Shown here in pieces: positions 2,095 through 21,251 of a stretch of DNA of 64,000 bases. Every line of letters starts with the position of its first letter. Positions within the stretch are counted from its first letter, which is position 1. A program made the position numbers and the translations under genes. The DNA is from Spirochaetaceae bacterium. GTDB taxonomy: Bacteria; Spirochaetota; Spirochaetia; Treponematales; Treponemataceae. The stretch is from the NCBI GenBank assembly GCA_017416145.1, contig JAFQDD010000010.1, positions 93,036 to 157,035 on the forward strand, in the 5' to 3' direction. Under the pieces are notes generated by a model that worked only from the letters and a program-made list of their open reading frames with translations, was not told where the DNA came from and made no database searches.

Positions 2095-3105
2095 CTAGTT
2101 TGCTAAACTGTCAAAATATTTTTTATTTTCGTAATAAAAATCCCCATAAATCGAAATATTTTCTACTTGATATGTATAATCCTTTTGATTTTTGAAAATT
2201 AAAATATTAAAAGCATACATATCTTCTTCTTTGCTGTAGGACAAAAATTTCATAACAGGATTATCTCCAGTTTTTGTCAAAGTAATACTTGGAGCATAAA
2301 CCAATAAATCTCCAGAAGAAGTAATAGAAGTTTTTGCAAGAGATTCAAACCAAGAAGCCTTTATTCCAGACTCTTTCAAACTATCCACAGAAGAACCAAA
2401 ATCCAAATTCATAATGAAAGAAAAAGCATCCTCACCAAGAACTTTCATGTCGTCAGCCCCGTACATAGAAGCCCATTTTTTTGACAAATCCTCTTTTTTG
2501 TCCTTGGCACTAAAATTTGGAAGATTTTGAAATCCCTTAAAATCAACAAAAGCCGTATCACTACTACTTAACAAAGTTCCAAAAGTAACAGCTTCAAAAA
2601 GCGGAGAGCCATATTCATCTACAATTCTGTTTAAATTAAAAATTGGAATGTAATAATCGTAAATCATTGTAACATCCCCACCAAATTGCACATAATCTTG
2701 ACTTATCCGCAAAGTTGAAAAGAAATCCCGATTATTAAGTTTTTTTCGACGACCAGCAAATTCATAAAGCAAATCGTGAAGATAATTTAAAGTTTCTGTA
2801 TCCTCTGCGGTTACATTTCCAACGATTTTTTCTCCAGTCATATCAATAAAATCACTCTTTGGATTCAAAGAAATGTAAACCGTAATATCACCTAAACCAG
2901 ATTCTGGATTTTTGGCGTAATATCTGATTGCTAAGGTACTATCGTCATATTGCAAAAACCCAATATAAGTTTCCCCAGAAAAAGTATAATCCCGATAAAA
3001 AACATATTCTCCAGAAGAAATAGGAAAAACAGGTTCAATCCCAGGAACTGCAAAGCAAAATGACACCATAAAAACTAAACAAATTGATATTGACCACTTA
3101 CGCAT
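2095..3105 (-). CDS. Hypothetical secreted protein (N-terminal signal peptide)
   Basis: The 336-aa ORF has a hydrophobic N-terminus (MRKWSISICLVFMVSFCFAVPG). No family was recognised. Confidence 0.5.
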   Translation of the reverse strand: MRKWSISICLVFMVSFCFAVPGIEPVFPISSGEYVFYRDYTFSGETYIGFLQYDDSTLAIRYYAKNPESGLGDITVYISLNPKSDFIDMTGEKIVGNVTAEDTETLNYLHDLLYEFAGRRKKLNNRDFFSTLRISQDYVQFGGDVTMIYDYYIPIFNLNRIVDEYGSPLFEAVTFGTLLSSSDTAFVDFKGFQNLPNFSAKDKKEDLSKKWASMYGADDMKVLGEDAFSFIMNLDFGSSVDSLKESGIKASWFESLAKTSITSSGDLLVYAPSITLTKTGDNPVMKFLSYSKEEDMYAFNILIFKNQKDYTYQVENISIYGDFYYENKKYFDSLAN

Positions 3106-3207: not shown

Positions 3208-5025
3208 TTACCCATTTAATTTTGCTAATTCAGCGTTTACAGTTTCTACAACCTTATTGATTGCGTCTTCTACAGAAAGAAGTTCTGCTTCAGTTGATGT
3301 TCGACCTTTTAATTCCACATTTGGAAGATTTTTTTCTCCCACAACAATTCTTAGTGGAATACCGATTAAGTCCATATCCTTAAACTTAACCCCAGGACGT
3401 TCGTTTCTGTCGTCTAGCAACACTTCTACGCCTTTTTTAGAAAGAGCTTCGTAGATTTCGTCAGCTTTTGCCTTCATTTCACCGTCGTATTTTACAGGAA
3501 CAATAGCCACGTGATATGGAGCTACACTCATTGGCCAAGTGATTCCGTTTTCATCGTGATGTTCTTCAATGATAGAAGCTAAAGCTCTGTCAACACCAAT
3601 TCCATAACATCCCATAGTTGGAACTTGTTGCTTTCCGTTTTCGTCTAAGAAAGTTACGTTCATTGATTTTGTATATTTGTAGCCAAGTTTGAAAATGTGA
3701 CCAAGCTCATTTCCTTTTTTGCTGTAATAAACGCTTTCTTTGCCATTTTCAGCACAACAAGCACATTTATCTCCAGCCACAACAGTTCTAACATCACTTA
3801 CTTGATATGGAGTAAAATCTCTACCAGGTTCTACATTTGCAAAGTGAACATCCTTTGCAAGACCACCAGTTACAGCATTGTGCATATGCATTACAGTTTC
3901 GTCTGCAATAACAGGCACAGTTTCTAGTTTTACAGGACCTGCAAAACCAACTGGAGCTCCAGTAATCCGCTCAACATCATAATCAGAAGCAAGTTCAACT
4001 TCAGAAGCCTTTAACAATCCTGCAAGTTTTGCTTCGTTTACATCTAAATCCCCACGAATACAAACTGCAAAGAAACTTTCTGGATAATATGGAATTCCAG
4101 AAGTTGCGTCTGTTACACGTTTTAAATCCTTGCATCCAGGAGCATTTCTTAAGTCAAGTTCGCTGTTAATAACTCTATAAATCAATGTTTTAATAAATGA
4201 TTTTGGAGTTGTATTTAAAAAAGAAGAAAGTTCTTCGATTGTTTTAACATTTGGTGTATCAATTGATTTTACAGCTTCTGTGGTAGCTTCTGTTTCTTCC
4301 CAGTCCGGAGCACAAGATGCTTTTTCTGTGTTTGCAGCGTATCCACAAGTTGGGCAGATAATTAGTGTATCGTCCCCAACTTCGCTTTCTACCATAAATT
4401 CTTCAGAACCAGTTCCACCCATTGCACCAGAGTCAGCTCGTACTGGAATAACAGTTAGCCCAAGCCGCTTAAAGATGTTGCGGTAAGCCTTTGCAAATTC
4501 GTCGTAAGTTGCGTCTAAACATTCTTGGTTAGCGTGGAAAGAATAAGCGTCTTTCATTGTGAACTCACGACCACGCATTACACCGTAGCGAGGACGGATT
4601 TCATCTCTATATTTTGTGTTAATTTGATATGCAACGATTGGAAGTTGTTTATAAGAAGAAAGTTCATCTCTTACAAGGGATGTAAAAACTTCTTCAGCAG
4701 TTGGGCTTACAACCAATTCTTGATTTACACGGTTTGTAATGCGTAACATTCCAGAACCCATAGTTTCCCAACGACCAGATTCACGCCAAAGTTCACCTGG
4801 AACAACTACAGAAGGTTTAAATTCCATTGCACCAATAGCATTCATTTCTTCTCTGATTATATTTTCTACTTTGCGGAAAGCTTTTAGTCCAAGAGGTAAA
4901 TAAGTAAAAAGACCGTTTCCTAATTTTCTTAAAAGCCCAGCTCTTAACATTAACTGATGACTTGCAATAACAGCTTCGGCAGGAACTTCCCGAAGTGTAG
5001 ACATAAAAGTTTTTGATGTTTTCAT
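3208..5025 (-). CDS. proS: Proline--tRNA ligase
   Basis: Class II aaRS motifs and overall ProRS similarity are present (MSTLREVPAEA..., FRDE-like IRPRYGVMRGREF, GCYGIGVDR). The start is set at MKTSK (ATG at 5025) rather than the upstream ORF extension to 5106. Confidence 0.9.
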   Translation of the reverse strand: MKTSKTFMSTLREVPAEAVIASHQLMLRAGLLRKLGNGLFTYLPLGLKAFRKVENIIREEMNAIGAMEFKPSVVVPGELWRESGRWETMGSGMLRITNRVNQELVVSPTAEEVFTSLVRDELSSYKQLPIVAYQINTKYRDEIRPRYGVMRGREFTMKDAYSFHANQECLDATYDEFAKAYRNIFKRLGLTVIPVRADSGAMGGTGSEEFMVESEVGDDTLIICPTCGYAANTEKASCAPDWEETEATTEAVKSIDTPNVKTIEELSSFLNTTPKSFIKTLIYRVINSELDLRNAPGCKDLKRVTDATSGIPYYPESFFAVCIRGDLDVNEAKLAGLLKASEVELASDYDVERITGAPVGFAGPVKLETVPVIADETVMHMHNAVTGGLAKDVHFANVEPGRDFTPYQVSDVRTVVAGDKCACCAENGKESVYYSKKGNELGHIFKLGYKYTKSMNVTFLDENGKQQVPTMGCYGIGVDRALASIIEEHHDENGITWPMSVAPYHVAIVPVKYDGEMKAKADEIYEALSKKGVEVLLDDRNERPGVKFKDMDLIGIPLRIVVGEKNLPNVELKGRTSTEAELLSVEDAINKVVETVNAELAKLNG

Positions 5026-5181
5026 AGAAAGTATTTTAGTAAAAACAAAGCACTTTTTCAATAGGAGAAAAAATCCAAAATTACAATGAAAAAAAATTAT
5101 AACCAAAATCTAAAATATTTTTGTACAAAAAAACAACATTTTGACCTTGACTTTTAACATAACTAAACGTAAACTAGAGGT

Positions 5182-7155: not shown

Positions 7156-7902
7156 TCACAAATTTTCAATGACTTCTTTTGCAGCAGCAATTTTTGTAGA
7201 ATCTGTTTTCCAGATTTCGTATTCGCTGATACCAGGTAAGCCCATAAACACAGATGGATTTTTGTAAATCATTTTGCTTTCTTCTGTGATTTTTCCAGAC
7301 ATATGAAAAGAGGTTAAACCTGTTATGGGCTGGATTTTTTGGATAACAGAGGCAGAAATACCGCCACCAGCTAAAATATCAACTTGGGAAGAAGCTTCTT
7401 TTACGTAGAGCGAAAGATTTTTTGCACCTTCTAAACAGTTTTCTCTTTGCCCAGAAGTTAAAATCGTGTTTATGCCAATTTCTTTGCATTGATTTATGGC
7501 TTTTATGGGATTTTTACACATATCAAAGGCTCGATGAAGAGTTACAGACATAGAACCTGAAGCCTCTTTTAAGATTTGAAGCCGCTTTACATCAAGTTCA
7601 CCGTCAGGTAAAAGACAACCAATTACAACACCATCGGCTCCAAGACTCTGAAAAAGTTTAACATCCTCAAGGATATTTGCAAATTCTCCATCAGAATAGC
7701 AAAAATCACCGAAGCGAGGCCGAATCAATACGTGAATTTTGATTTTACACTGATTTTTTATTGATAAAAAAAGACTTGGACTTGGAGTAAGACCGCCGAT
7801 AACAAGACCAGAACACAATTCTAAGCGATTTGCACCGCCCTTTTCCGCAGCCAAAGCCGATTCCAAAGAGTCAACACAAACTTCTAAAATGTAATTTTTC
7901 AT
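7156..7902 (-). CDS. cutC: Copper homeostasis protein CutC family
   Basis: The N-terminus is a typical CutC TIM-barrel pattern (LEVCVDSLESALAAEKGGANRLELCSGL..GGLTPS). Length is 248 aa. Confidence 0.8.
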   Translation of the reverse strand: MKNYILEVCVDSLESALAAEKGGANRLELCSGLVIGGLTPSPSLFLSIKNQCKIKIHVLIRPRFGDFCYSDGEFANILEDVKLFQSLGADGVVIGCLLPDGELDVKRLQILKEASGSMSVTLHRAFDMCKNPIKAINQCKEIGINTILTSGQRENCLEGAKNLSLYVKEASSQVDILAGGGISASVIQKIQPITGLTSFHMSGKITEESKMIYKNPSVFMGLPGISEYEIWKTDSTKIAAAKEVIENL

Positions 7903-11282: not shown

Positions 11283-12738
11283 TTTATTTGTAGTTCGGTT
11301 GTGAAGGTGCGACCGAGTTTGGAGGAACAAAAATGTCAGAAGCCGAGTTTCAATTCACGCACCCGTGAAGGTGCGACGGTCTACACGACAGTTAAGACAA
11401 TACCCACAAGGTTTCAATTCACGCACCCGTGAAGGTGCGACTCTAGGAATGAAGATCATTTATCAAAAGAGAGGTGTTTCAATTCACGCACCCGTGAAGG
11501 TGCGACACACTTTTATAAATCTTGTTGCTAAGCACAAAAGTTTCAATTCACGCACCCGTGAAGGTGCGACACAAAAGAAAACTAGAACTAAGAGATGTAA
11601 TTAGTTTCAATTCACGCACCCGTGAAGGTGCGACGAAAAAAAAGATGTTGATATTATCCACAAACCAGTTTCAATTCACGCACCCGTGAAGGTGCGACAC
11701 CATGCCATGCTCCTAGCTCAAAGTTGCCACGTTGTTTCAATTCACGCACCCGTGAAGGTGCGACAGTACTAGAAGCTGTTAAGCGTGATGGCATTTCAGT
11801 TTCAATTCACGCACCCGTGAAGGTGCGACTTATTGATGAATGTTTCTCTCAAAAAGAGTTAGATGTTTCAATTCACGCACCCGTGAAGGTGCGACTCTTC
11901 AATAGTGTCTTTAGCATCTTTACAAAGTGTTTCAATTCACGCACCCGTGAAGGTGCGACTGAAAATCTTAAACTCCGTAAGCTTTCAGATACAGTTTCAA
12001 TTCACGCACCCGTGAAGGTGCGACAAAACCCCTATTGACTTAAAACCAATGATAGAAGTTTCAATTCACGCACCCGTGAAGGTGCGACGTTAATGTTTGA
12101 TGTTCAGCTAATAGTTGTCTGTTTCAATTCACGCACCCGTGAAGGTGCGACGTTCTTTTGTTAAAATGTTTACGCTTTTACTTTTTGTTTCAATTCACGC
12201 ACCCGTGAAGGTGCGACATTGAAAGTACATCTTCACGCCCATATACACTATGTTTCAATTCACGCACCCGTGAAGGTGCGACAAATGCGTTTTAATTTTT
12301 CTGTTGAATCAGCTCTTGTTTCAATTCACGCACCCGTGAAGGTGCGACGTGCCATTGCTTGACATACATGATATGGAGTAAAGTTTCAATTCACGCACCC
12401 GTGAAGGTGCGACTTATTTGTTCGTTTACATATCCATTTAAATAAAATGTTTCAATTCACGCACCCGTGAAGGTGCGACATATATCAAGGTAGGAATAAA
12501 CAATAAAATATATGTTTCAATTCACGCACCCGTGAAGGTGCGACGTTTAAAGAGAGCAATAGATCTTGCTCAATACAGTTTCAATTCACGCACCCGTGAA
12601 GGTGCGACGGTGTTTTGTTATCATCTAACCAAGGCATACATTGTTTCAATTCACGCACCCGTGAAGGTGCGACTGGACAAACAGCCATATTAAAAAAAAC
12701 TAAAAGAGTTTCAATTCACGCACCCGTGAAGGTGCGAC
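11283..12738 (-). CRISPR. Type I-C CRISPR array: 22 identical 31-nt repeats, 32-35 nt spacers, plus one degenerate terminal repeat at the leader-distal end
   Basis: The plus-strand repeat is gtttcaattcacgcacccgtgaaggtgcgac. On the minus strand it reads GTCGCACCTTCACGGGTGCGTGAATTGAAAC, the I-C-type ...ATTGAAAC end. The first repeat is at 11347..11377 and the last at 12708..12738. The degenerate copy at 11283..11313 keeps only gtgaaggtgcgac. The cas2-proximal AT-rich leader sets the transcription direction to minus. Confidence 0.97.
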
Positions 12739-12874: not shown

Positions 12875-13171
12875 TTATAAGATAAGAATCCCTTGTGGAT
12901 TTAATGTTTCTTTTTGACCAATATGTTCTACTTTTCTATCCCAATTTGCACCTAAGGAATAAAATCGTAAACTATCGTATTCAGGATTTATTGTTTTTAA
13001 TAATTTATTTTTTAATTCGACCCATTGAGACGGATCTACCAAACATTCAAAAACAGAATACTGAACTCTTTGTCCATAATTCTCTAATATTTTTGAAACT
13101 TTACGTAATCTTTTTTCGCCTTTTTCATCTCTAGCTACATCATAAGTAACAAGCATCATCATATAACTCAC
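12875..13171 (-). CDS. cas2: CRISPR-associated endoribonuclease Cas2
   Basis: The 98-aa ORF has the MLVTYDV...YSVFEC pattern. It is adjacent to cas1 and the array. Confidence 0.9.
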   Translation of the reverse strand: MSYMMMLVTYDVARDEKGEKRLRKVSKILENYGQRVQYSVFECLVDPSQWVELKNKLLKTINPEYDSLRFYSLGANWDRKVEHIGQKETLNPQGILIL

Positions 13172-14206
13172 CTATTTCCACAAATATACAGGATATCCAT
13201 CAATATCACCTCTTATAAATCTTGCCAATAATCTAGCTTGTGTATGAAATAAAATTGCCATATGCATTTTCTTTTCTACAAAGGGATGAGTAATAACAGA
13301 TTCTTTCTTTTTTTGATATGTCGAAATTAATTTTTTTCTAGTTTCTTCATTCATAATTACAGCACCACTTGCAGTGATTTCAAAATCATCTTTTGATACT
13401 TCATTTCTATTAATCAACGATAAAACTATTCTATCCGCAAAAAAAGCTCTAAATTCTTCCATCAAATCTAAAGCAAGACTAAGTCTGCCTGGTCTATCTC
13501 TATGCATAAAACCAACAGCAGGATCCAAACCAACACATTCTAAAGCACTTATCATATCGTGATATAACAAAGTATATGTATAAGAAAGCATTGCATTTAC
13601 ATTATCTAAAGGAGGACGCCTATTTCGCCCAGTAAATTTAAAATCATCTTTTTGAGATGTAATTAATTCGTCAAATACAGAAAAGTAATCTTCTGCAGAC
13701 TCCCCTTCAATACCTCTTAATTTATCTAAATCTTTTACAGTTTCTATTTTATCAATATTACGATTCAATTTGTATATTACTTTTTTTGCCTTTTCTGAAT
13801 CAATTTTATTACCGTGATCTCTAACTGCTCGCTGTAATACAGTTTTTTGATTCGCAATTTTTCCTATTATAAAAAATTTTGCAACTTCTAATGATTTTTC
13901 TTTGTCATCAGAAATTCTATATTGCTGTTTCCTTAATAAAACGTTTCCAGCTACAGGTCCTTGAACTCTTGCTAAATATTTCCCTGTTTCAGATAAAAAA
14001 CTTATTGTTATATTATACTCTGGACATGCACCTAACAAAAATGGGCTAACATATATATTCCCAAAACAAACAATACTATCAAGATTTATCATTGGAATAG
14101 AAGCAATTACTTTATCATCAATAATTACTTCTACAGCTTCACCTTTTTTATGCAAATATGTTTTTTGTGTTGTAACGTACAATGTATTTAAAAATCTTTG
14201 CATCAA
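13172..14206 (-). CDS. cas1: CRISPR-associated endonuclease Cas1 (I-C type)
   Basis: The 344-aa ORF has a Cas1 fold signature (…GIEGESAEDYF…LDNVNAMLSYTYTLL…GFMH…LALDLMEEFR). Confidence 0.92.
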   Translation of the reverse strand: MMQRFLNTLYVTTQKTYLHKKGEAVEVIIDDKVIASIPMINLDSIVCFGNIYVSPFLLGACPEYNITISFLSETGKYLARVQGPVAGNVLLRKQQYRISDDKEKSLEVAKFFIIGKIANQKTVLQRAVRDHGNKIDSEKAKKVIYKLNRNIDKIETVKDLDKLRGIEGESAEDYFSVFDELITSQKDDFKFTGRNRRPPLDNVNAMLSYTYTLLYHDMISALECVGLDPAVGFMHRDRPGRLSLALDLMEEFRAFFADRIVLSLINRNEVSKDDFEITASGAVIMNEETRKKLISTYQKKKESVITHPFVEKKMHMAILFHTQARLLARFIRGDIDGYPVYLWK

Positions 14207-14212
14207 ATGCTC

Positions 14213-14851
14213 CTATTCGTCATCCATCAATAAATCTAGACTTAATCGCCTTTTGATATATGAATTTACAGATTTTCTTCTTCCAGCAGTTTCTGGAAAA
14301 CATTCGTCAATAAATGAACAACTTTCACATTTCTTTGTATATTCAGCCTTTGGAGTTTTTTCTGATGCAATTAATTCATGAAACTTTTTTGATAAATTTA
14401 CAGTTTCTGTTCTTAGTTCATTAGTAATAGGAATGGATATTCTTTTTCTTATTTTAAAATAATATATTGCACCTTCGGAAATAGAACATTTTAGCATTTC
14501 TTCAAGACAAATCACTTGTGCACACAATTGAACTTCATCAGTTGAATCTTCTTTTGGTTCTCCATGCTTATACTCAATAGGTATGATTTTACCATCTGAG
14601 TAAAACTCTACGGCATCAGTCTTACCAACTAATCCAAGCAAACTAGAAGCAATTTTTAAATCTCGTTCTGTTCTAACAATCTTTCGAGATTCAGAAACTC
14701 CACTATGAACTTTTTCATGTTGTACTCGACCAGATGCTGTAAAATAATTTTCATTCCAGAGTTGTTCTAAATGTATAAATGCACATTGCCGCGGACAAAA
14801 GTGTAAATGCTGAAGTCCGCTAAGCAATAAATAATCAGATTCTGCGTACAT
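14213..14851 (-). CDS. cas4: CRISPR-associated exonuclease Cas4 (RecB-like, Fe-S)
   Basis: The 212-aa ORF has an N-terminal Cys (HFCPRQC), a C-terminal CxxC...C cluster (KKCESCSFIDEC) and an IEYKHG nuclease motif. Confidence 0.88.
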   Translation of the reverse strand: MYAESDYLLLSGLQHLHFCPRQCAFIHLEQLWNENYFTASGRVQHEKVHSGVSESRKIVRTERDLKIASSLLGLVGKTDAVEFYSDGKIIPIEYKHGEPKEDSTDEVQLCAQVICLEEMLKCSISEGAIYYFKIRKRISIPITNELRTETVNLSKKFHELIASEKTPKAEYTKKCESCSFIDECFPETAGRRKSVNSYIKRRLSLDLLMDDE

Positions 14852-14861
14852 TATAGGGTGA

Positions 14862-15710
14862 CTAGAATGTAAGAATTTCTGGTTTTAGCCCATCTAAATC
14901 ATTTGATTTTATAATGTAATCATTAGCGGACTTTACATCTACAACAGCATCTTTCTTTGTAATTTCCAATGTGCGATGAACTTTTGCAGCTGAATATTGT
15001 CCTGCTTTTGAATTATGCTTCCACCAATATAAAGCAACAACTTCCATACTGCCCTCTGGACGAGCAGAAGATGCATCATTATCAAAAATGTGTAGCAATG
15101 CATTTTTAATTTTCTCTGCATCTTCGTCACTAAATCCTGTTAATTCAGCAAGTTGAGGATTAATGCTTCCAAAAGTAGTATAAAGCCCAAAATCTACACT
15201 GTGTTTCATACCCATTGTATCAGACCCACGCTTTGAACCATCGCCTTCTCCACTCACACTTTTTGTGATCTGAAGACTAGTTACATTTATTAAATCAACA
15301 CTGAATGCTGGTTGAATTGTAACAGGTCCACGAATACCTACAGAAACTCCTTTCCCTTCTCCACCTTTAAATGCAAAAACTTGACCAAAACTTCGAACAT
15401 CAATCCAAGTTTCATTTGCAAGTTTACGAAGTTCTTCTTCATTCTTCATAGCTTTACCTAAGACAGCTTCAGCTCGGTTTCTTAAAGACCGATGTTCATC
15501 TTTTCTATAATCATCTGATTGAACAAAAATAGATTCTCCAGCATCTTGTAAACGATTTCTAATTTTTCGTTTTAGACATACATCAGAAAGCTCTCCATGC
15601 CCATCATAAGTCATTCTTGGAATATTTCCATTTAATGGGTCACCGTTTGGATTTGCATTTTTTACACTAAATACTAATGCGAAATCAATTTTATTCTGTA
15701 ATACAGCCAT
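14862..15710 (-). CDS. cas7: Type I-C Cascade backbone subunit Cas7c (Csd2)
   Basis: The 282-aa ORF shows the pattern ...NANPNGDP...R...D.. typical of Csd2. Its position is between cas8c and cas4. Confidence 0.88.
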   Translation of the reverse strand: MAVLQNKIDFALVFSVKNANPNGDPLNGNIPRMTYDGHGELSDVCLKRKIRNRLQDAGESIFVQSDDYRKDEHRSLRNRAEAVLGKAMKNEEELRKLANETWIDVRSFGQVFAFKGGEGKGVSVGIRGPVTIQPAFSVDLINVTSLQITKSVSGEGDGSKRGSDTMGMKHSVDFGLYTTFGSINPQLAELTGFSDEDAEKIKNALLHIFDNDASSARPEGSMEVVALYWWKHNSKAGQYSAAKVHRTLEITKKDAVVDVKSANDYIIKSNDLDGLKPEILTF

Positions 15711-15713
15711 AAT

Positions 15714-16103
15714 TTATTCCTCCATATTTTCTTCTGATTCTTCATCAGTTTTTTTTCTATAACTTTGTAATTGACAATGATATCCTAATAAAAACTCACC
15801 AGAAAGTGGTTTGTCATTTAGAAAATCATCTGTTTCAAATAAAACTGAAATATCTTGTATTTGTTTTTCAAACCAGTCTTGAAGACCTTTTTCCAACTGT
15901 CGTCGATATGCAGATAACTTATCTTTATACAACAACAACCAAGTTTTAGCAGGATGAATAGAGAATTGTTGCATATAACGAACGGCATTTGTCTCTCTAT
16001 TCTGTCCAGACTTTTTCAAAGCAGCATTTTCATATTGTTGCAACACTGCTAACAATCTTCCAAATAGGTAATCCCTACTTGTTCGAGTTTCTTCTAAAGC
16101 CAA
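15714..16103 (-). CDS. cas11: Probable internally translated small subunit Cas11c (C-terminal 129 aa of cas8c)
   Basis: An in-frame TTG at 16103 is preceded by AAGGAGG with an 8-nt spacer (aaAAGGAGGattataaaTTGgct). Independent translation of Cas11 from within cas8c has been reported for I-C systems. Confidence 0.5.
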   Translation of the reverse strand: MALEETRTSRDYLFGRLLAVLQQYENAALKKSGQNRETNAVRYMQQFSIHPAKTWLLLYKDKLSAYRRQLEKGLQDWFEKQIQDISVLFETDDFLNDKPLSGEFLLGYHCQLQSYRKKTDEESEENMEE

Positions 16104-17543
16104 TTTATAATCCTCCTTTTTGTGGTTATATTTATAAACAGCACATGCTATTCCCAAAAGACTATCTCGCTTAGTTTGGGAATCAATAATAAATAAATTT
16201 GATGCAGTTCTCACACACTGTCTTTCTAAATCCAAAGGTATTTTATTACCATCAAGAATACAAGGTAGTAATCTCTGAATTGTTTTTTCAACAAGATTAG
16301 ATTTTACTCTCTCCCCATAAGCACAGTATACAATTTCAGTGGGAGATGGCACCCCAACAGTTCTAATAAACATATTATTTTTCCAATAACAATGATGCCA
16401 TACTAGATTGTTATACCAGTTATTTAGAGCCTGAATTAACTCTGTTCTTTCAAGGATGCGATACATTGCAATAGAAGCACGACCTTGACCAGGTGTTGCT
16501 TCTTTTACAACCATTATCATAATATTTTTAGAATTTTCTAAATTTCCATAATATCCTAAAAGACGATTATTCATCGCTCGAGCAAATTCTTCAGAAGTTG
16601 AATATACAATTGATTCTTCCTCAAGCTCGTCTTCGATTCCGTAATCAAAATCAGCACTACCATCTGTAATAGCAGGTAACTTGTCCCCTGCACGATTCCA
16701 AGAAACAAGAGAAAGACCATCTCCTATTGATACTCCTTGTCTCTTTAAAAGCCATCTTAATGCACTATGAGCTTTTTGGGATGTTTCAGAACTTATCTGA
16801 CAAGCTTCTCTATCATTTGAAAAACGACCTCTAAAAGTATAATTTGAAGTATCATTCGAAGAAATAAGTTTTGCTTTATCACCGCCATTTCGAATTTTTG
16901 CAGGGTGGTAATTAGCAATCTTAACCTTTTCTCCATCAATATAATCAAAATCAATTTTACGAACTCGTTTTTCTATATCTTCTTTTTTATCAAACTTATT
17001 ATTACAGTATTCTTCAAAATAATCGGAATTATAAAAATCAATCCAACTTTTATACGTTTCTTCATCTTTCCACAGTTCGGGATTAGAATCTCCTTTTATA
17101 TACACTTCCCAGCGTATAAAATCTGATATATCGCTCTCTTTTATATTGGATATTTTCAAGTCTTGAAGTAAGCTTCCTTTTTCAATATATTTGCATACAG
17201 ATTTCACCTTAGAATTACCATAATCAGAATCACTCCAACTTTTTAATAAATTAAAATATTGAGAATGCTTTTCAGATGTTCCAGTAACATATTCTAATTT
17301 GTCACACAGAGGATAAGCATCAGCACCACTAGATCTAGATGAGCAAGATTCTGTACAAGGCATCAAAGTAACCTTATCTGATTTGTTATCGATTAGAGAA
17401 GCTTTTATGAACTCCCCATTCTCATCAATTGTTACTGTAACTGATGCATTATTTGAAATATGATAAATTGGTGTGGGTTTTTCATCAGAATTACGCTTAA
17501 TTGTATTATCATATACTTGAGAAAGTTCATATAACCAACTCAT
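15714..17543 (-). CDS. cas8c: Type I-C Cascade large subunit Cas8c (Csd1)
   Basis: The 609-aa ORF lies between cas5c and cas7c. It overlaps cas5c by 4 nt (ATGA). Size and position are diagnostic of Csd1. Confidence 0.85.
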   Translation of the reverse strand: MSWLYELSQVYDNTIKRNSDEKPTPIYHISNNASVTVTIDENGEFIKASLIDNKSDKVTLMPCTESCSSRSSGADAYPLCDKLEYVTGTSEKHSQYFNLLKSWSDSDYGNSKVKSVCKYIEKGSLLQDLKISNIKESDISDFIRWEVYIKGDSNPELWKDEETYKSWIDFYNSDYFEEYCNNKFDKKEDIEKRVRKIDFDYIDGEKVKIANYHPAKIRNGGDKAKLISSNDTSNYTFRGRFSNDREACQISSETSQKAHSALRWLLKRQGVSIGDGLSLVSWNRAGDKLPAITDGSADFDYGIEDELEEESIVYSTSEEFARAMNNRLLGYYGNLENSKNIMIMVVKEATPGQGRASIAMYRILERTELIQALNNWYNNLVWHHCYWKNNMFIRTVGVPSPTEIVYCAYGERVKSNLVEKTIQRLLPCILDGNKIPLDLERQCVRTASNLFIIDSQTKRDSLLGIACAVYKYNHKKEDYKLALEETRTSRDYLFGRLLAVLQQYENAALKKSGQNRETNAVRYMQQFSIHPAKTWLLLYKDKLSAYRRQLEKGLQDWFEKQIQDISVLFETDDFLNDKPLSGEFLLGYHCQLQSYRKKTDEESEENMEE

Positions 17544-18223
17544 ATTTTCTCCTCCATATTTACCTTTGGATTATTTACACAATAATTCTTAATTTCTCGT
17601 CTTATAGAACATTCTTCGGGACGAGGAAAAACTATTACTCCATTTTCCATTTTTGGATGCCAAAATCTTGCAGTCAGTTTTTCTGTTTCTACTTCAGAAG
17701 GATAATCAAATCCATGAAACATCAACCCAAATGAGAATGAATCTTCATCATCATAAAAACTTTCACCTTCACCAAACTTACAAGGTTCAACATAACCTTG
17801 ACATTCTCGAGCACCTAAAAAAATATCTCTTCGCCCACCTTTTTCTAAAGAACGTCGAGCCATATCAAAATGTTTGTTTTCATTTCGGTCGTTCTCTAAA
17901 TCAGAACGTTGCATATTCCATTCAAAATGAGCTTTTACCTGATATTCAACATCTCTAAGGCATGTGTAAACAGATAAATCATTACCACCATTGTAACAAA
18001 GAGGTTTTATATTTTTTGATTCTGTACTAATTTTGTTAATCAATCTAATTTTATCAATAATCCAAATAATCGTCGGTTTCCAATAAATACTTTGTGTAAT
18101 TCCTTTTAAAGCCTCATAGGTAGGAATTAAATATGTACTTTTTTCACCACCAATTTTAGTAACTGGATCTGTAAAAAGTGCATACTTACCTGTTAATTTG
18201 AATTCAATGCTATTTTCTTTCAA
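17540..18223 (-). CDS. cas5: Cas5c (Cas5d) pre-crRNA-processing endoribonuclease / Cascade subunit
   Basis: The sequence NSIEFKLTGKYALFTDPVTKIGGEKSTYLIPTYEALKGITQSIYWKPT is classic Cas5d. The ORF track extends to a TTG at 18274. The TTG at 18223 has a perfect AAGGAGG 5 nt upstream and lies downstream of the predicted promoter, so it is preferred. Confidence 0.85.
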   Translation of the reverse strand: MKENSIEFKLTGKYALFTDPVTKIGGEKSTYLIPTYEALKGITQSIYWKPTIIWIIDKIRLINKISTESKNIKPLCYNGGNDLSVYTCLRDVEYQVKAHFEWNMQRSDLENDRNENKHFDMARRSLEKGGRRDIFLGARECQGYVEPCKFGEGESFYDDEDSFSFGLMFHGFDYPSEVETEKLTARFWHPKMENGVIVFPRPEECSIRREIKNYCVNNPKVNMEEKI

Positions 18224-18245
18224 AACATCCTCCTTAGATATTTTT

Positions 18246-18298
18246 ATTGTAAAACAGATACATTTATATGTCAATATTTATTTTATAATAATCTAGAA
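18246..18298 (-). promoter_or_regulatory. Near-consensus sigma70-type promoter of the cas5c-cas2 operon with an adjacent PAM-flanked crRNA-mimic target site
   Basis: On the minus strand, TTC (18298..18296) is followed by TAGATTATTATAAAAT (18295..18280) and aaata. Then comes TTGACA (18274..18269), a 17-nt spacer, and TACAAT (18251..18246). Confidence 0.6.
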
Positions 18299-18308
18299 GT
18301 TATATTTA

Positions 18309-18373
18309 TTATAAAATTAGGTTATAAACCTAATTTTATAATAATCTAGTTTCAATTCACGCAAAAATGCGAC
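18309..18373 (-). ncRNA. Solitary degenerate CRISPR repeat (psi-repeat) with a crRNA-like tail. Candidate Cas-regulating crRNA mimic.
   Basis: On the minus strand, 18373..18349 reads GTCGCATTTTTGCGTGAATTGAAAC. Compared with the array repeat, the 5' 6 nt and 3' 14 nt are identical and the central hairpin is shortened. The tail starts TAGATTATTATAAAAT and contains a perfect 15-bp-arm palindrome (18309..18341). Confidence 0.55.
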
Positions 18374-18419
18374 ACATAAACATAATACATAAAATTTCAT
18401 ATTTTATCTATCTCCTAAT

Positions 18420-20894
18420 TTAAAATGATAATACAGATATATCTGCATCAAAATAATTTTGTATTTCAGAAACTAAACCTAAATTTTTGCTATAATATTC
18501 TTCATTCAAAACATATATTCCACTATCTGCGAAGAGTTCATAAATAATACCTTTTTCTTTTAATTTTTCTATTTGATTTGAATAAACATTAATTGAAACT
18601 TGTTGTGCCTCTTTTAGTAAAGTTTTTAATTCTGAATAATAATTATCAGCTCTTTTTTCCAAAGCAGAACATTTACCAATCAATTCTTTTCCGACACCAT
18701 ACGGAACCATAATCCCTGTTGAAGAATCTGATATTACTTCAAATTCTTCCCAAGCTGTTCTAAAAGATTGTACATATGGGTTTTTCCATTTATTATTTGA
18801 ATGTATTTGTTCATATTTATCAACACTCCTTTTGTTATCAGAAAGCATATTTAAAACACTTGATTCTTTATTTTCTATTGAATAATCAAGTTTGTTTTTA
18901 AAAGCTTTATAATAAAGCTTAAAATATGCATCAATCACTTCTGGATTTATTAAATCAATACTTTTTGAATTTTTATTGTTTCTAAAATCATAAAGAATTT
19001 TTTCCATACATTTTTGTGCAATTTTTAGTTCTTCAAGAGATCCTATTTTCTCATCTCTGTAAGAAAAAATTGCTACACAACCACAAACAGATTTTCCATC
19101 CGCATCTTTTAACTCATTATATCTGTTACACCTCCCTGCAGTTTGAATAATTGAATCTAATCCAGCCATAAATCTAATAGCACCTTGAAAACTTAAATCA
19201 ACTCCAGCTTCTATTAATTGCGTACTTATACATACTACATTTTTACCTGCTTCTAATTTTTCCTTAATTTCAGAAATTACAGCTTTTCTGTGAGCCGGGC
19301 ACATATTTGTACTTAAATGAAAAACATAATCAGAACATTTACTCATTTTCAAAAGTTCAAATAACTCTTTAGCTTGAGGTTTAGTATTAACCACTATTAA
19401 AAAACTATTTAGTGTTATCATTTGATTTTTTACATAATCACAAATCTCCCTTGCGGTATTTGATTTTCTTCCTTGATCTGTCATATCCAAAAAATCAACT
19501 CGTTTAAGAGATTCAAAATGACTTTTTACATTTTGAATTACTTCTTCATCTATTACTAAGTTGAACCTTCGTGCTGTATTACTATCTATTTTATCTAAAC
19601 CAGGTTGAGTCGCAGTACATAACATAGCTGAACATCCACATACTTTTACTAAGTATTCGATTCCCCAATTAAACAAATAGGTTGTTTTTATTGGCAAGGT
19701 CTGAATCTCATCAAACACAAAAACACTATTTGATAAATGATGCATACGGCGTATTTTCTGTGTTCCAGAGCCAAAAAGTGTTTCCAAAAATTGAACCATC
19801 GTTGTTATAATTATGGGAGCATCCCATAATTGTTCATACTTTGAATATAAATTCTCATCTCCTAATAATTCAGTTTTCTTTTCAACAGAAATATTCGAAT
19901 GACATTCTAAAACTATTTTACCTTTTGAATTTTCATCCTCTAAAACCCTTCGAATTTCATCCGCATTTTGGTCAATAATGGATGTATACGGTGCTATAAT
20001 AAAAATATGTTTCATATTATGTTTATGTGCTTGTTCCAACGCAAAACGAAGAGAAGCAAATGTTTTTCCCGCACCAGTAAAAGCAGAACAACTATATACT
20101 CCTTTTTCACCTTTTCCCAAAATAGAACATTTATTTGAAACCTCAGTCTTTATTTTACCTAAATCATCTAATTTTTCAATTTTTTGAAGATGATTTTCTA
20201 ATTTTGAAAGCAAGTCTGACCAATTTGGAATTTTATCATATTTTTCCAACAATATTGTTTCGTTTTCCTCAAAAGCAGCACTACATATCCTATCTGCATC
20301 AATAAGGCAACTTGACAAATTTCTTAACTGTAACCCCATATTAAATATCACTTGCTTTTTTCCGATTTTTTTTATTTTACATTTTTCAAGCAATGCTTTT
20401 TTCCCTTCTAATATAAGTTCTTGGGAAGATAATAATTCTTGGATTTTATTACCAAACAAAGTATTGATTTTGTCTTCAACTTCAGACAACTCATGTTCAC
20501 AACTATCTTTATTTAATCTTTTATAAAATTCTGATTCACCATTTGGAGAAATCATATCAGGCAATCCAGAACCATGGTGATACATAATAACTGATTCTAT
20601 CGCAGAACCTATCCATTGATTTTCAAGCAACCAATTTTTTCTGATCAACTGTGCTCCAACAGTTGAATGATCCCTTTTACGAACTTTGTCCCCTGTTATC
20701 GATTTTTTCAAATATTCTTGCCATAAAAATGTAGATTTCCCTGCATCATGTAACAAAGAAGCTATTTCACAAAGTTTTGGAAACCCAAAATCTTTTCCAA
20801 ATATTTTACTTAGTTCAGCAACTTCATTTAGATGAGTTTTTAATGTTTGAAAATTTGGTTTTTCTTCTCTAAATTTTGCATAAATTTCATTCAT
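18420..20894 (-). CDS. cas3: Cas3 helicase-nuclease (HD domain plus SF2 helicase), type I-C
   Basis: The 824-aa ORF has an N-terminal HD motif (…LLHDAGKS…MYHHG). Walker A-like (TGAGKT), DEAD-like (FDEIQ) and C-terminal helicase motifs (QTAGRCNR) are present. Confidence 0.92.
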   Translation of the reverse strand: MNEIYAKFREEKPNFQTLKTHLNEVAELSKIFGKDFGFPKLCEIASLLHDAGKSTFLWQEYLKKSITGDKVRKRDHSTVGAQLIRKNWLLENQWIGSAIESVIMYHHGSGLPDMISPNGESEFYKRLNKDSCEHELSEVEDKINTLFGNKIQELLSSQELILEGKKALLEKCKIKKIGKKQVIFNMGLQLRNLSSCLIDADRICSAAFEENETILLEKYDKIPNWSDLLSKLENHLQKIEKLDDLGKIKTEVSNKCSILGKGEKGVYSCSAFTGAGKTFASLRFALEQAHKHNMKHIFIIAPYTSIIDQNADEIRRVLEDENSKGKIVLECHSNISVEKKTELLGDENLYSKYEQLWDAPIIITTMVQFLETLFGSGTQKIRRMHHLSNSVFVFDEIQTLPIKTTYLFNWGIEYLVKVCGCSAMLCTATQPGLDKIDSNTARRFNLVIDEEVIQNVKSHFESLKRVDFLDMTDQGRKSNTAREICDYVKNQMITLNSFLIVVNTKPQAKELFELLKMSKCSDYVFHLSTNMCPAHRKAVISEIKEKLEAGKNVVCISTQLIEAGVDLSFQGAIRFMAGLDSIIQTAGRCNRYNELKDADGKSVCGCVAIFSYRDEKIGSLEELKIAQKCMEKILYDFRNNKNSKSIDLINPEVIDAYFKLYYKAFKNKLDYSIENKESSVLNMLSDNKRSVDKYEQIHSNNKWKNPYVQSFRTAWEEFEVISDSSTGIMVPYGVGKELIGKCSALEKRADNYYSELKTLLKEAQQVSINVYSNQIEKLKEKGIIYELFADSGIYVLNEEYYSKNLGLVSEIQNYFDADISVLSF

Positions 20895-20987: not shown

Positions 20988-21251
20988 CTACTTTCCACCC
21001 AATGCCTCTTGCATTATCTCCTCCAGCGACAAACCTCTTTTCCTATCTTTTGCTTCTTCCTGCCGACGCTTCTCTTCTTCCTCAAATTCCTCTTTAGAGC
21101 CACAAGCTTCCTTGATTGTCAATCTTCCCGCCCGACTTTTGAAGCCTTGAGCCGCATTTTCAAAAAAACAAGACAATTTTTCGTCACCAACAGATTCTGC
21201 TTTTTCTTTGCACATTGCTGATTGTTCGTTTAAATATTCATAGTAGCTCAT
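20988..21251 (-). CDS. Hypothetical small acidic/charged protein (87 aa)
   Basis: The ORF has an upstream GAGGAGG-like sequence (ttagaggaggattttATG). No family was recognised. Confidence 0.4.
   Translation of the reverse strand: MSYYEYLNEQSAMCKEKAESVGDEKLSCFFENAAQGFKSRAGRLTIKEACGSKEEFEEEEKRRQEEAKDRKRGLSLEEIMQEALGGK

Follow-up and report, generated by a model that had tools for sequence, protein, structure and literature searches.

Locus and features

The window analysed here is a stretch of 64,000 nucleotides (64 kb) from a Spirochaetaceae bacterium (GenBank assembly GCA_017416145.1, contig JAFQDD010000010.1, positions 93,036 to 157,035). Its minus strand carries a complete type I-C CRISPR-Cas locus in the order cas3, cas5c, cas8c, cas7, cas4, cas1c, cas2 and array. 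We studied a candidate mimic of CRISPR RNA (crRNA) in the spacer between cas3 and cas5c: a pseudo-repeat (psiR) followed by a pseudo-spacer (psiS) that matches a site at the cas5c promoter. The window has a G+C content of 35% and the 196-nt spacer one of 19%. The nearest public relative is a Treponema metagenome-assembled genome from water-deer colon, with 99% Cas5c identity. The element and its target comprise the following parts.

18410..18382, minus strand: candidate promoter of the psiR RNA, TAGATA-17-TATTAT, 9/12 in a consensus scan; start about 2 nt before psiR
18373..18349, minus strand: psiR, GTCGCATTTTTGCGTGAATTGAAAC, read directly; GU, mini-hairpin and 11-nt handle
18371..18360, minus strand: CGCA/UUUU/UGCG mini-hairpin of psiR, 4-bp stem, in place of the middle of the array repeat
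18359..18349, minus strand: 11-nt 5' handle of psiR, UGAAUUGAAAC, intact relative to the array repeat
18348..18333, minus strand: psiS, TAGATTATTATAAAAT, guide positions 1-16, the pairing part
18306-18323 / 18327-18344, minus strand: perfect hairpin (arms of 18 nt, loop of 3 nt) that takes in psiS positions 5-16
18298..18296, minus strand: protospacer-adjacent motif (PAM) TTC, read on the guide-identical strand, 5' of the protospacer
18295..18280, minus strand: target (protospacer) of psiS, 16/16 identical, about -56 to -41 from the inferred cas5c transcription start
18274..18269 and 18251..18246, minus strand: TTGACA, 17 nt, TACAAT, promoter of the Cascade/adaptation operon, scoring 11/12
18235..18229, minus strand: ribosome-binding site AAGGAGG, then 5 nt, then TTG 18223 of cas5c

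The pseudo-repeat thus lies within the cas locus, 5.6 kb away from the array. Surrounding genes and the array are as follows.

18420..20894, minus strand: cas3, by gene match; upstream of the element and outside the unit driven by the target promoter
TTG 18223 to 17540, minus strand: cas5c (TIGR01876, E 1e-77), first gene of the presumed regulated operon
15714-17543, minus strand: cas8c, by gene match
14862-15710, minus strand: cas7, by gene match
14213-14851, minus strand: cas4, by gene match
13172-14206, minus strand: cas1c, by gene match
12875-13171, minus strand: cas2, by gene match
11347..12738, minus strand: CRISPR array, 22 identical copies of the 31-nt repeat GTCGCACCTTCACGGGTGCGTGAATTGAAAC

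The genes cas8c-cas7-cas4-cas1c-cas2 (12875..17543, minus strand) are presumed to be co-transcribed with cas5c, as their open reading frames (ORFs) overlap or abut. The array would be the source of canonical crRNAs, which would compete with the mimic for Cas proteins. Directly upstream of cas3, on the same strand, lies an ORF of 87 amino acids (20988-21251, minus strand); considered as a protein regulator, it was set aside, having no NCBIfam or Pfam match.

Pseudo-repeat and predicted processing

An earlier note on this DNA, made from the letters alone, placed psiR at 18373..18349 of the minus strand; direct reading agrees, as it does for the other coordinates given there. The first 6 nt of psiR are identical to the array repeat, as that note had it, and so are the last 15 nt, not 14. 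The crRNA 5' handle is thus kept whole, all 11 nt matching the array repeat. Between these ends the central stem-loop has been swapped for a 4-bp CGCA/TGCG mini-hairpin, seen both in the sequence and in the fold. Exact copies of the 14-nt repeat end, GCGTGAATTGAAAC, occur in the window only in the array and at one solitary site, psiR. The description of psiR as solitary therefore stands by sequence in the window, but has to be qualified by a sister lineage (L005, below) that keeps a second degenerate repeat.

Cas5c is the pre-crRNA endonuclease of type I-C systems. The window Cas5c aligns to Bacillus halodurans Cas5c 4f3m at E 1e-88, and the residues for catalysis, Y and K-H, are conserved. 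Cas5c cleaves at the 3' base of the repeat stem, leaving an 11-nt 5' handle, and recognises the stem base and the 3' overhang but neither the loop nor the 5' overhang (PMC8524198). Exactly these recognised parts of the repeat are retained in psiR. Its predicted structure is compatible with processing by Cas5c, and the predicted cut falls between 18360 and 18359, at the 3' base of the mini-hairpin. The RNA might begin at the candidate promoter; alternatively, it could be processed out of the cas3 3' untranslated region. One relative (L129) likewise has TATTAT, 8 nt ahead of GTCGCA; other relatives have just looser -10-like hexamers at varying distances, as judged by eye. An Rfam scan of 18150-18500 at a permissive threshold returned only meaningless microRNA and long non-coding RNA matches.

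An ORF of 27 codons, MKFYVLCLCVAFLRELKLDYYKIRFIT (18317-18400, minus strand), runs through psiR from its start at ATG 18400, which has AGGAG 9 nt ahead of it. Comparable small ORFs occur in L001, L005, L094, L006 and L129, and the only residues they have in common are encoded by the repeat (VA..RELKL). Agreement of frame between lineages is forced, because only repeat frame 1 is stop-free. A toxin, leader peptide or conserved gene was rejected: a start codon is missing from L007 and L175, and Pfam gave no match. The ORF is probably incidental; its translation might in principle interfere with processing.

Guide, target and promoter

Type I complexes turn every sixth base of the guide outwards, where it does not pair, so that 14 of the first 16 guide positions are read. 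Direct reading confirmed that the 16-mer after psiR recurs exactly at 18295..18280 and that TTC immediately precedes this second copy. The promoter 5 nt beyond the target is near consensus as claimed, and the proposed cas5c start (AAGGAGG-N5-TTG) proved right, since the ORF from 18223 is Cas5c. No gene intervenes between the targeted promoter and cas5c; the ribosome-binding site and cas5c come directly. Identity was said to end after 16 nt: the copies do differ from position 17 on, and the match is 17 nt long if the preceding C is counted.

An exact 16-mer match is expected by chance at about 1e-5, and a full match at the 14 read positions arose in 28 of 200,000 shuffles of the downstream intergenic sequence. 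The 64-kb window holds no third exact copy of TAGATTATTATAAAAT and no PAM (TTY) plus seed match for the guide beyond the known target. A guide match with two mismatches at 14451, inside cas4, lacks the seed and was discarded. Neither a second handle nor a target was found upstream of cas3 in the window.

The PAM identity used here is taken from published I-C systems rather than from spacer-protospacer matches of this one. The I-C PAM is TTC, with TTT also functional (PMC5602111), and has been generalised as TTY (bioRxiv 10.1101/2023.08.05.552134), which agrees with the mix of TTC and TTT across the loci described below.

Recurrence in related loci

With the window Cas5c as query, 80 I-C loci were retrieved from species-representative genomes, and a further set of 228 contigs carrying the mini-hairpin repeat GTCGCA-N4-7-TGCGTGRATTGAAAC was collected from metagenomes and IMG/VR. 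The window and 85 related I-C loci were scanned for the arrangement; several of these lineages are related and the counts ignore kinship. The scan gave 18 repeat-like sites with the same arrangement. Within a Treponema clade (Cas5c 75-99% identical), psiR lies between cas3 and cas5c in seven lineages, each with the next 16-17 nt recurring beside the cas5c promoter.

Window: guide TAGATTATTATAAAAT; target TTC + identical; mismatches none
L001: guide TAGATTATCATAAAAT; target TTC + TAGATAATCATTAAAT; mismatches 6, 12
L005: guide TAGTAATGAATAAAATA; target TTT + identical; mismatches none
L094: guide TAGTTTGGTTAAAAAT; target TTT + TAGTTAGGTTATAAAT; mismatches 6, 12
L006 (= L123): guide TGTCAAAGGTCGAAAT; target TTT + TGTCAAAGGTCAAAAT; mismatch 12
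L129 (= L176): guide TAATCTTAAGTGAAATA; target TTT + TAATCTTAAGTAAAATA; mismatch 12
L007: guide TAGTTTTTGTTTATAGT; target TTC + TAGTTATTGTTTATAGT; mismatch 6

Guides differ wholly between lineages, each matching its own target. The check proposed in the earlier note, whether psiR and the promoter-proximal match co-vary across related I-C loci, was thus run, and they do. L005 and L094 have psiR in common, with paired changes of guide and target at positions 5, 7, 9, 10 and 11. The window and L001 share 97% identity over the spacer; position 9 distinguishes them by T-to-C in guide and target alike, and target positions 6 and 12 are altered in L001 without a matching change in its guide. Mismatches in the clade fall at guide positions 6 and 12, the bases that Cascade does not read.

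For a phase test, we counted the loci at which a nearby copy matches the guide everywhere but at positions k, k+6 and k+12. There are 12 such loci for k=6, against 0, 1, 2, 0 and 0 for k=1-5. This pattern is predicted by neither a protein operator nor a decaying duplication.

In a blind survey, the 16 nt following each of 260 solitary ATTGAAA[CGT] motifs (the window and 80 genomes) were scored against all sequence within 400 nt. At the read positions, 12 sites scored 14/14 and two 13/14; shuffled guides reached at most 12/14. The PAM is TTC or TTT at 13 of these 14 top-scoring loci, the other being TTA in L044, and TTC or TTT again at five further loci outside the 14. Metagenomes added L094, L129, L175 and L138. 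A stem of at least 4 bp ending exactly at the cut site is present at 16 of 19 target-bearing sites versus 35 of 258 other solitary motifs. Its sequence varies between lineages (CGCA/TGCG, CGTG/CACG, CGAA/TTCG, CGTAG/CTACG, CATTCA/TGAATG and others) by compensatory changes that keep the stem at the cut site. The loops are often stable tetraloops: GCAA, GUGA and, in a phage family described below, UUCG. The handle variant (GAAUUGAAAC or GGAUUGAAAC/U) agrees with the array of the same locus wherever an array was captured.

These data bear on whether the element is a functionless decaying remnant, either a degenerate array fragment or the product of a local tandem duplication, with 16-mers alike by descent only. 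In keeping with that idea, guide and target copies start 53-58 nt apart in all co-directional lineages, a second degenerate repeat stands between the copies in L005, compatible with an old two-unit duplication, and standalone repeat-like sequences are common, being found in 34% of I-C loci (PMC10120712, Table 1). Neutral decay, however, would make copies diverge within a genome; instead they are identical at the read positions and differ between genomes. Mismatches at positions 6 and 12 only, the kept PAM, and a cleavage-site stem maintained by compensatory changes also speak against it, and the inverted and cas3-divergent arrangements described next cannot stem from one tandem duplication. 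A case that would favour simple duplication, a repeated 16-mer without a repeat remnant, was sought in relatives and not found: in every lineage with the duplicates, they begin right after the repeat handle. We regard a mere remnant as very improbable.

Arrangements

Six co-directional lineages (the window, L001, L005, L006, L094 and L129) have a perfect TTGACA downstream of the target, separated by 4-6 nt from its position 16. L007 carries the entire unit in inverted orientation, with the target past the -10 box and ahead of the ribosome-binding site; from there it can only block transcription. L026 shares with L007 this third arrangement, between cas3 and cas5c on the opposite strand. In a second architecture psiR lies upstream of cas3 and is divergent from it, with a TTC- or TTT-flanked target about 100-145 nt off in the cas3 promoter region. 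It accounts for many sites of the blind survey and is found in L002 (about 5007-5040), L044 (PAM TTA), L053, L056, L060, L063, L065 and L068; L175 and L138 fit it as well, and L134 does so more weakly (12/14). Here the whole cas3-to-cas2 operon would be regulated. L002 is Treponema socranskii, which has the element upstream of cas3 and none between cas3 and cas5c.

The segment before the PAM is alike between lineages: AAGAAAAAC/TTT in L005 (7895-7925) and L006 (7850-7875), GAAAACAAAC/TTT in L094 (minus strand, about 7375-7400), and ATATAAC/TTC in the window. It resembles the ...GAAAC end of a repeat, possibly because the target arose when a repeat-guide unit was duplicated.

Hairpin after the guide

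The palindrome behind the guide was first described with 15-bp arms (18309..18341); its arms are in fact 18 nt, spanning 18306..18344. As RNA, the hairpin has a fold z of -5.8. It shows no similarity to the repeat and no clear U-tract. A terminator scan found nothing, as the hairpin has too few G-C pairs for the rule applied, so a terminator role is inferred. Each of the seven Treponema-clade lineages has a hairpin downstream of psiS, the distance between the two being variable. That of L005 precedes GTATTGAAAC, which makes the structure there a degenerate second repeat. Given that L005 keeps this repeat, the window hairpin is probably either a remnant of a second repeat or a terminator, and descent from a second repeat is likely. 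L007 and most cas3-divergent cases have instead a G+C-rich terminator-like hairpin, followed in L007 and L063 by a T run. We read the window hairpin as the putative 3'-end structure of the guide RNA; it is probably also the end of the cas3 transcript.

The palindrome raises the question whether it and the AT-rich 12-16-mers are protein operators, a cas3 terminator or both, with the likeness to a repeat incidental. The palindrome does come right after cas3, and TTATTATAAAAT occurs three times in the window (two direct copies, one inverted) in the manner of an operator. The triplication, however, results from the hairpin extension: L001 lacks the extended arm, so that the triple TTATTATAAAAT is specific to the window strain. 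Operator sequences would not be expected to differ wholly between close lineages as these do, nor to tolerate mismatches with a 6-nt periodicity beside a TTY flank, and the duplication invariably starts at the very point where the repeat handle ends. No candidate regulator gene adjoins, the 87-amino-acid ORF having no family match. We consider the chance of this explanation slighter still than that of a decaying remnant.

Proposed function

We conclude that the element is most likely a type I-C CreR-like gene, whose RNA would guide Cascade to repress cas5c-cas8c-cas7-cas4-cas1-cas2 without recruiting Cas3. As an interpretation from sequence comparison, the crRNA-mimic autoregulator is supported by every computational test made.

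A short RNA would begin at or just before psiR, or be cut from the cas3 3' untranslated region. The features kept in psiR suggest that Cas5c would cut it at the 3' base of the mini-hairpin, giving the 11-nt handle, the guide TAGAUUAUUAUAAAAU and the 3' hairpin, which would end or protect the processed RNA. Cas5c, Cas8c and Cas7 could then assemble on it. The complex would read TTC at 18298..18296, and guide positions 1-16 would pair just upstream of the cas5c -35 box, as the complementarity indicates.

Cryo-electron microscopy has Cas3 of type I-C binding the full R-loop state only, and a 12-bp partial R-loop is a stable state in I-C (bioRxiv 10.1101/2023.08.05.552134). As pairing stops at 16-17 nt, only a partial R-loop should form, Cas3 would not be recruited and the chromosome would stay uncut. 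By analogy with CreR and I-F1 mini-arrays, the bound complex would block RNA polymerase and lower cas5c-cas8c-cas7-cas4-cas1-cas2 expression. This negative feedback would ease once Cas proteins are drawn off by array crRNAs or by anti-CRISPRs, after the model of Liu et al. (bioRxiv 10.1101/2023.03.10.532045). In this architecture cas3, lying upstream, would remain outside the repressed unit.

Several observations weigh against this function. The target adjoins the -35 box from upstream, where bound proteins can also activate. The 9/12 match of the psiR promoter is weak and not significant in DNA of 19% G+C. Behind the guide the window has just the unrelated 18-bp hairpin and nothing like a repeat, and this hairpin would sequester guide positions 5-16 and could hinder loading. 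In the 99% relative L001 (2171-2215) the hairpin is just 11 bp and starts at position 13, the 18-bp extension being strain-specific. The element is absent from the sequence examined of the close relatives L003, L004 and L008, and must be dispensable there; such patchiness agrees with the distribution reported for mini-arrays (PMC10120712). Finally, the literature read yielded no experimentally tested I-C case of the CreR type.

The position of the target also bears on whether a real crRNA-like RNA is loaded into Cascade with another output: activation from -41..-56, a decoy like the phage-borne Racr, or a main target elsewhere. The target sits upstream of the -35 box rather than on it, and one study reports a type I-C system that enhances transcription in some conditions (PMC10520945). 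Solitary I-C units with the same mini-hairpin are abundant in phages with no nearby target, and RacrIC1 inhibits I-C (PMC10651486). Yet a decoy needs no conserved, co-varying, PAM-flanked target, and one is found in every lineage; the 64-kb window holds no other PAM plus seed match. Tested analogues all repress, and the L007 target can only block transcription. A different output is accordingly judged unlikely. The analogues in I-B, I-E, V-A and I-F1, together with the L007 arrangement, suggest repression rather than activation.

Relation to known systems

The earlier note likened the element to CreA/CreR-type regulators. Its anatomy, its PAM and the co-variation of guide and target all accord with that class, which is already known and for which I-C examples have been noted bioinformatically. 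CreR represses cas promoters of I-B (Haloarcula/Halobacterium), I-E (Salmonella) and V-A (Moraxella) systems, and creA-like elements were found by hand for I-C too (Liu et al., Figure S7, bioRxiv 10.1101/2023.03.10.532045). The element resembles CreR in its degenerate repeat within the cas locus, its seed-proximal guide, its PAM-flanked site by the effector promoter and its lack of a toxin partner, and in predicted autorepression that would sense crRNA load and anti-CRISPRs. Where CreR has two pseudo-repeats around its guide, a single one is recognisable here: the repeat upstream has been shortened to a 4-bp stem capped by a tetraloop, and an unrelated hairpin takes the place of the downstream repeat. 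In addition, cas3 is outside the regulated unit here.

Shmakov et al. showed that a mini-array of I-F1 Pseudomonas aeruginosa YL84 represses without cleavage, and a mismatch at the sixth guide position was noted for I-F1 mini-arrays (PMC10120712). Among 1,206 I-C loci they found a repeat-like sequence in 34% and a mini-array in 7%; targets were reported for I-E, I-F1, I-D and I-B, and none for I-C (PMC10120712). The window element shares with regulatory mini-arrays a target in the promoter region and a canonical PAM; mini-arrays repress without interference and are patchy among close relatives. Unlike the mini-array form, it has no second pseudo-repeat after the guide in the window, and psiR is co-directional with cas3. 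Most I-C cases in our survey have a terminator-like hairpin in place of that repeat. As the literature allows for single-repeat cases (PMC10120712), the missing repeat bears on the label 'mini-array', not on the mechanism. The 16-bp BLASTN threshold of that study (PMC10120712) might miss psiR, which matches the repeat over at most 15 nt without interruption.

CreTA/CrePA modules likewise use a crRNA-like RNA to guide Cascade to a promoter through partial complementarity. There the promoter drives a toxin gene, whereas here it drives cas5c directly with no toxin gene under it; membership was rejected, as the small ORF over psiR precedes the target, lacks conservation and matches no family. The viral units Racr (PMC10651486) and Cracr (bioRxiv 10.1101/2024.10.29.618823) resemble the element in having a single I-C-type repeat right after a promoter, with a short stem, a stable tetraloop and an intact handle. 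They are phage-borne, without cas genes or a nearby target, whereas the window element is chromosomal, in the cas operon, and has a target in cis; this place and the co-varying target speak against a Racr or viral decoy identity. An IMG/VR search with ATTGAAACTAGATNATYATNAAAT for a phage copy of the guide, as in Cracr, gave one match, inside a 216-amino-acid ORF without a repeat hairpin and hence attributed to chance. The Cracr preprint mentions I-C CreA/R in Neisseria (bioRxiv 10.1101/2024.10.29.618823).

Further parallels lie in class 2 systems, where the element again compares with natural guide-like RNAs of short pairing. In tracr-L, which autorepresses II-A cas9, and in the II-B scaRNA, about 11-15 nt of pairing makes a CRISPR nuclease a transcriptional repressor. 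Both differ from the window element in RNA architecture and involve no Cascade.

The element belongs to the already known CreR/regulatory mini-array mechanism, of which it is a well-supported further member, and it leaves the current picture of CRISPR regulation unchanged. At most, a single minimised repeat, a non-repeat 3' hairpin and a co-directional placement exempting cas3 are variant features. The exact locus may already be catalogued in earlier survey lists. What it adds is an extension of RNA-guided CRISPR self-regulation to a spirochaete type I-C locus, with unusually clean comparative evidence in the paired guide and target changes and the mismatches confined to unread bases. It suggests that natural guide pairing of 16-17 nt suffices for binding without Cas3 cutting, and it offers a tractable case for experiment in a subtype now used in genome editing and CRISPR interference. 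I-C loci appear to use single-repeat regulators with a minimal hairpin, which pipelines demanding 16-bp repeat matches or two repeats might miss.

A more speculative proposal, which we think rather doubtful, is that I-C regulatory guides form an architectural class of their own, defined by a single minimised repeat, a three-segment guide and a non-repeat 3' hairpin. In the minimised repeat the handle may be preceded by a 4-5-bp stem that a stable tetraloop closes (GNRA, UUCG or U-rich), and the guide may be read in exactly three segments of 5 nt, at positions 1-5, 7-11 and 13-16/17. I-C lacks the Cas6 cap for which a second repeat is required, which would allow a non-repeat hairpin at the 3' end. 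As only 12-18 nt separate handle and hairpin in the Treponema clade, a shortened Cascade, by its structure unable to license Cas3, could form on the mature RNA. Masking of guide positions 5-16 by the window hairpin could be a built-in attenuator of repression. With cas3 left unregulated, only the Cascade and adaptation genes would be throttled. Temperate gut phages seem to have acquired the minimised design, or to have evolved it on their own, for use as an anti-I-C RNA.

Solitary repeats in phages

Two families of contigs carry solitary repeats. The first comprises 173 contigs (IMG/VR L200-L308 and many of the metagenome contigs L081-L199), each with one I-C-type repeat, GTCGCACTTCGGTGCGTGGATTGAAAC. 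Its design is GTCGCAC-UUCG-GUGCGUGGAUUGAAAC, with a UUCG tetraloop mini-hairpin. The repeat is followed by GACATTAAAAATGTCAT or GACATTAAAAATGTCATTGTGG..., with promoter-like sequence before and a G+C-rich terminator after. No cas genes are nearby and no target in cis was found. In L205 the unit (2100-2460, minus strand) lies among an integrase, a helix-turn-helix protein and a large terminase. The family looks like a temperate-phage RNA anti-CRISPR or crRNA-like regulator directed against a gut-bacterial I-C system.

In the second family, from viral and gut contigs, no cas genes were seen in the contig sequence examined. Its units read ...TCAGATCATCAGATGATTCT + GTCGCATTTCG[GA]TGCGTGGATTGAAAC + GAAAATGCTATTTCAAGTCTGTGC... 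and occur in L098, L099, L103, L153, L203, L223, L259, L262, L271 and others.

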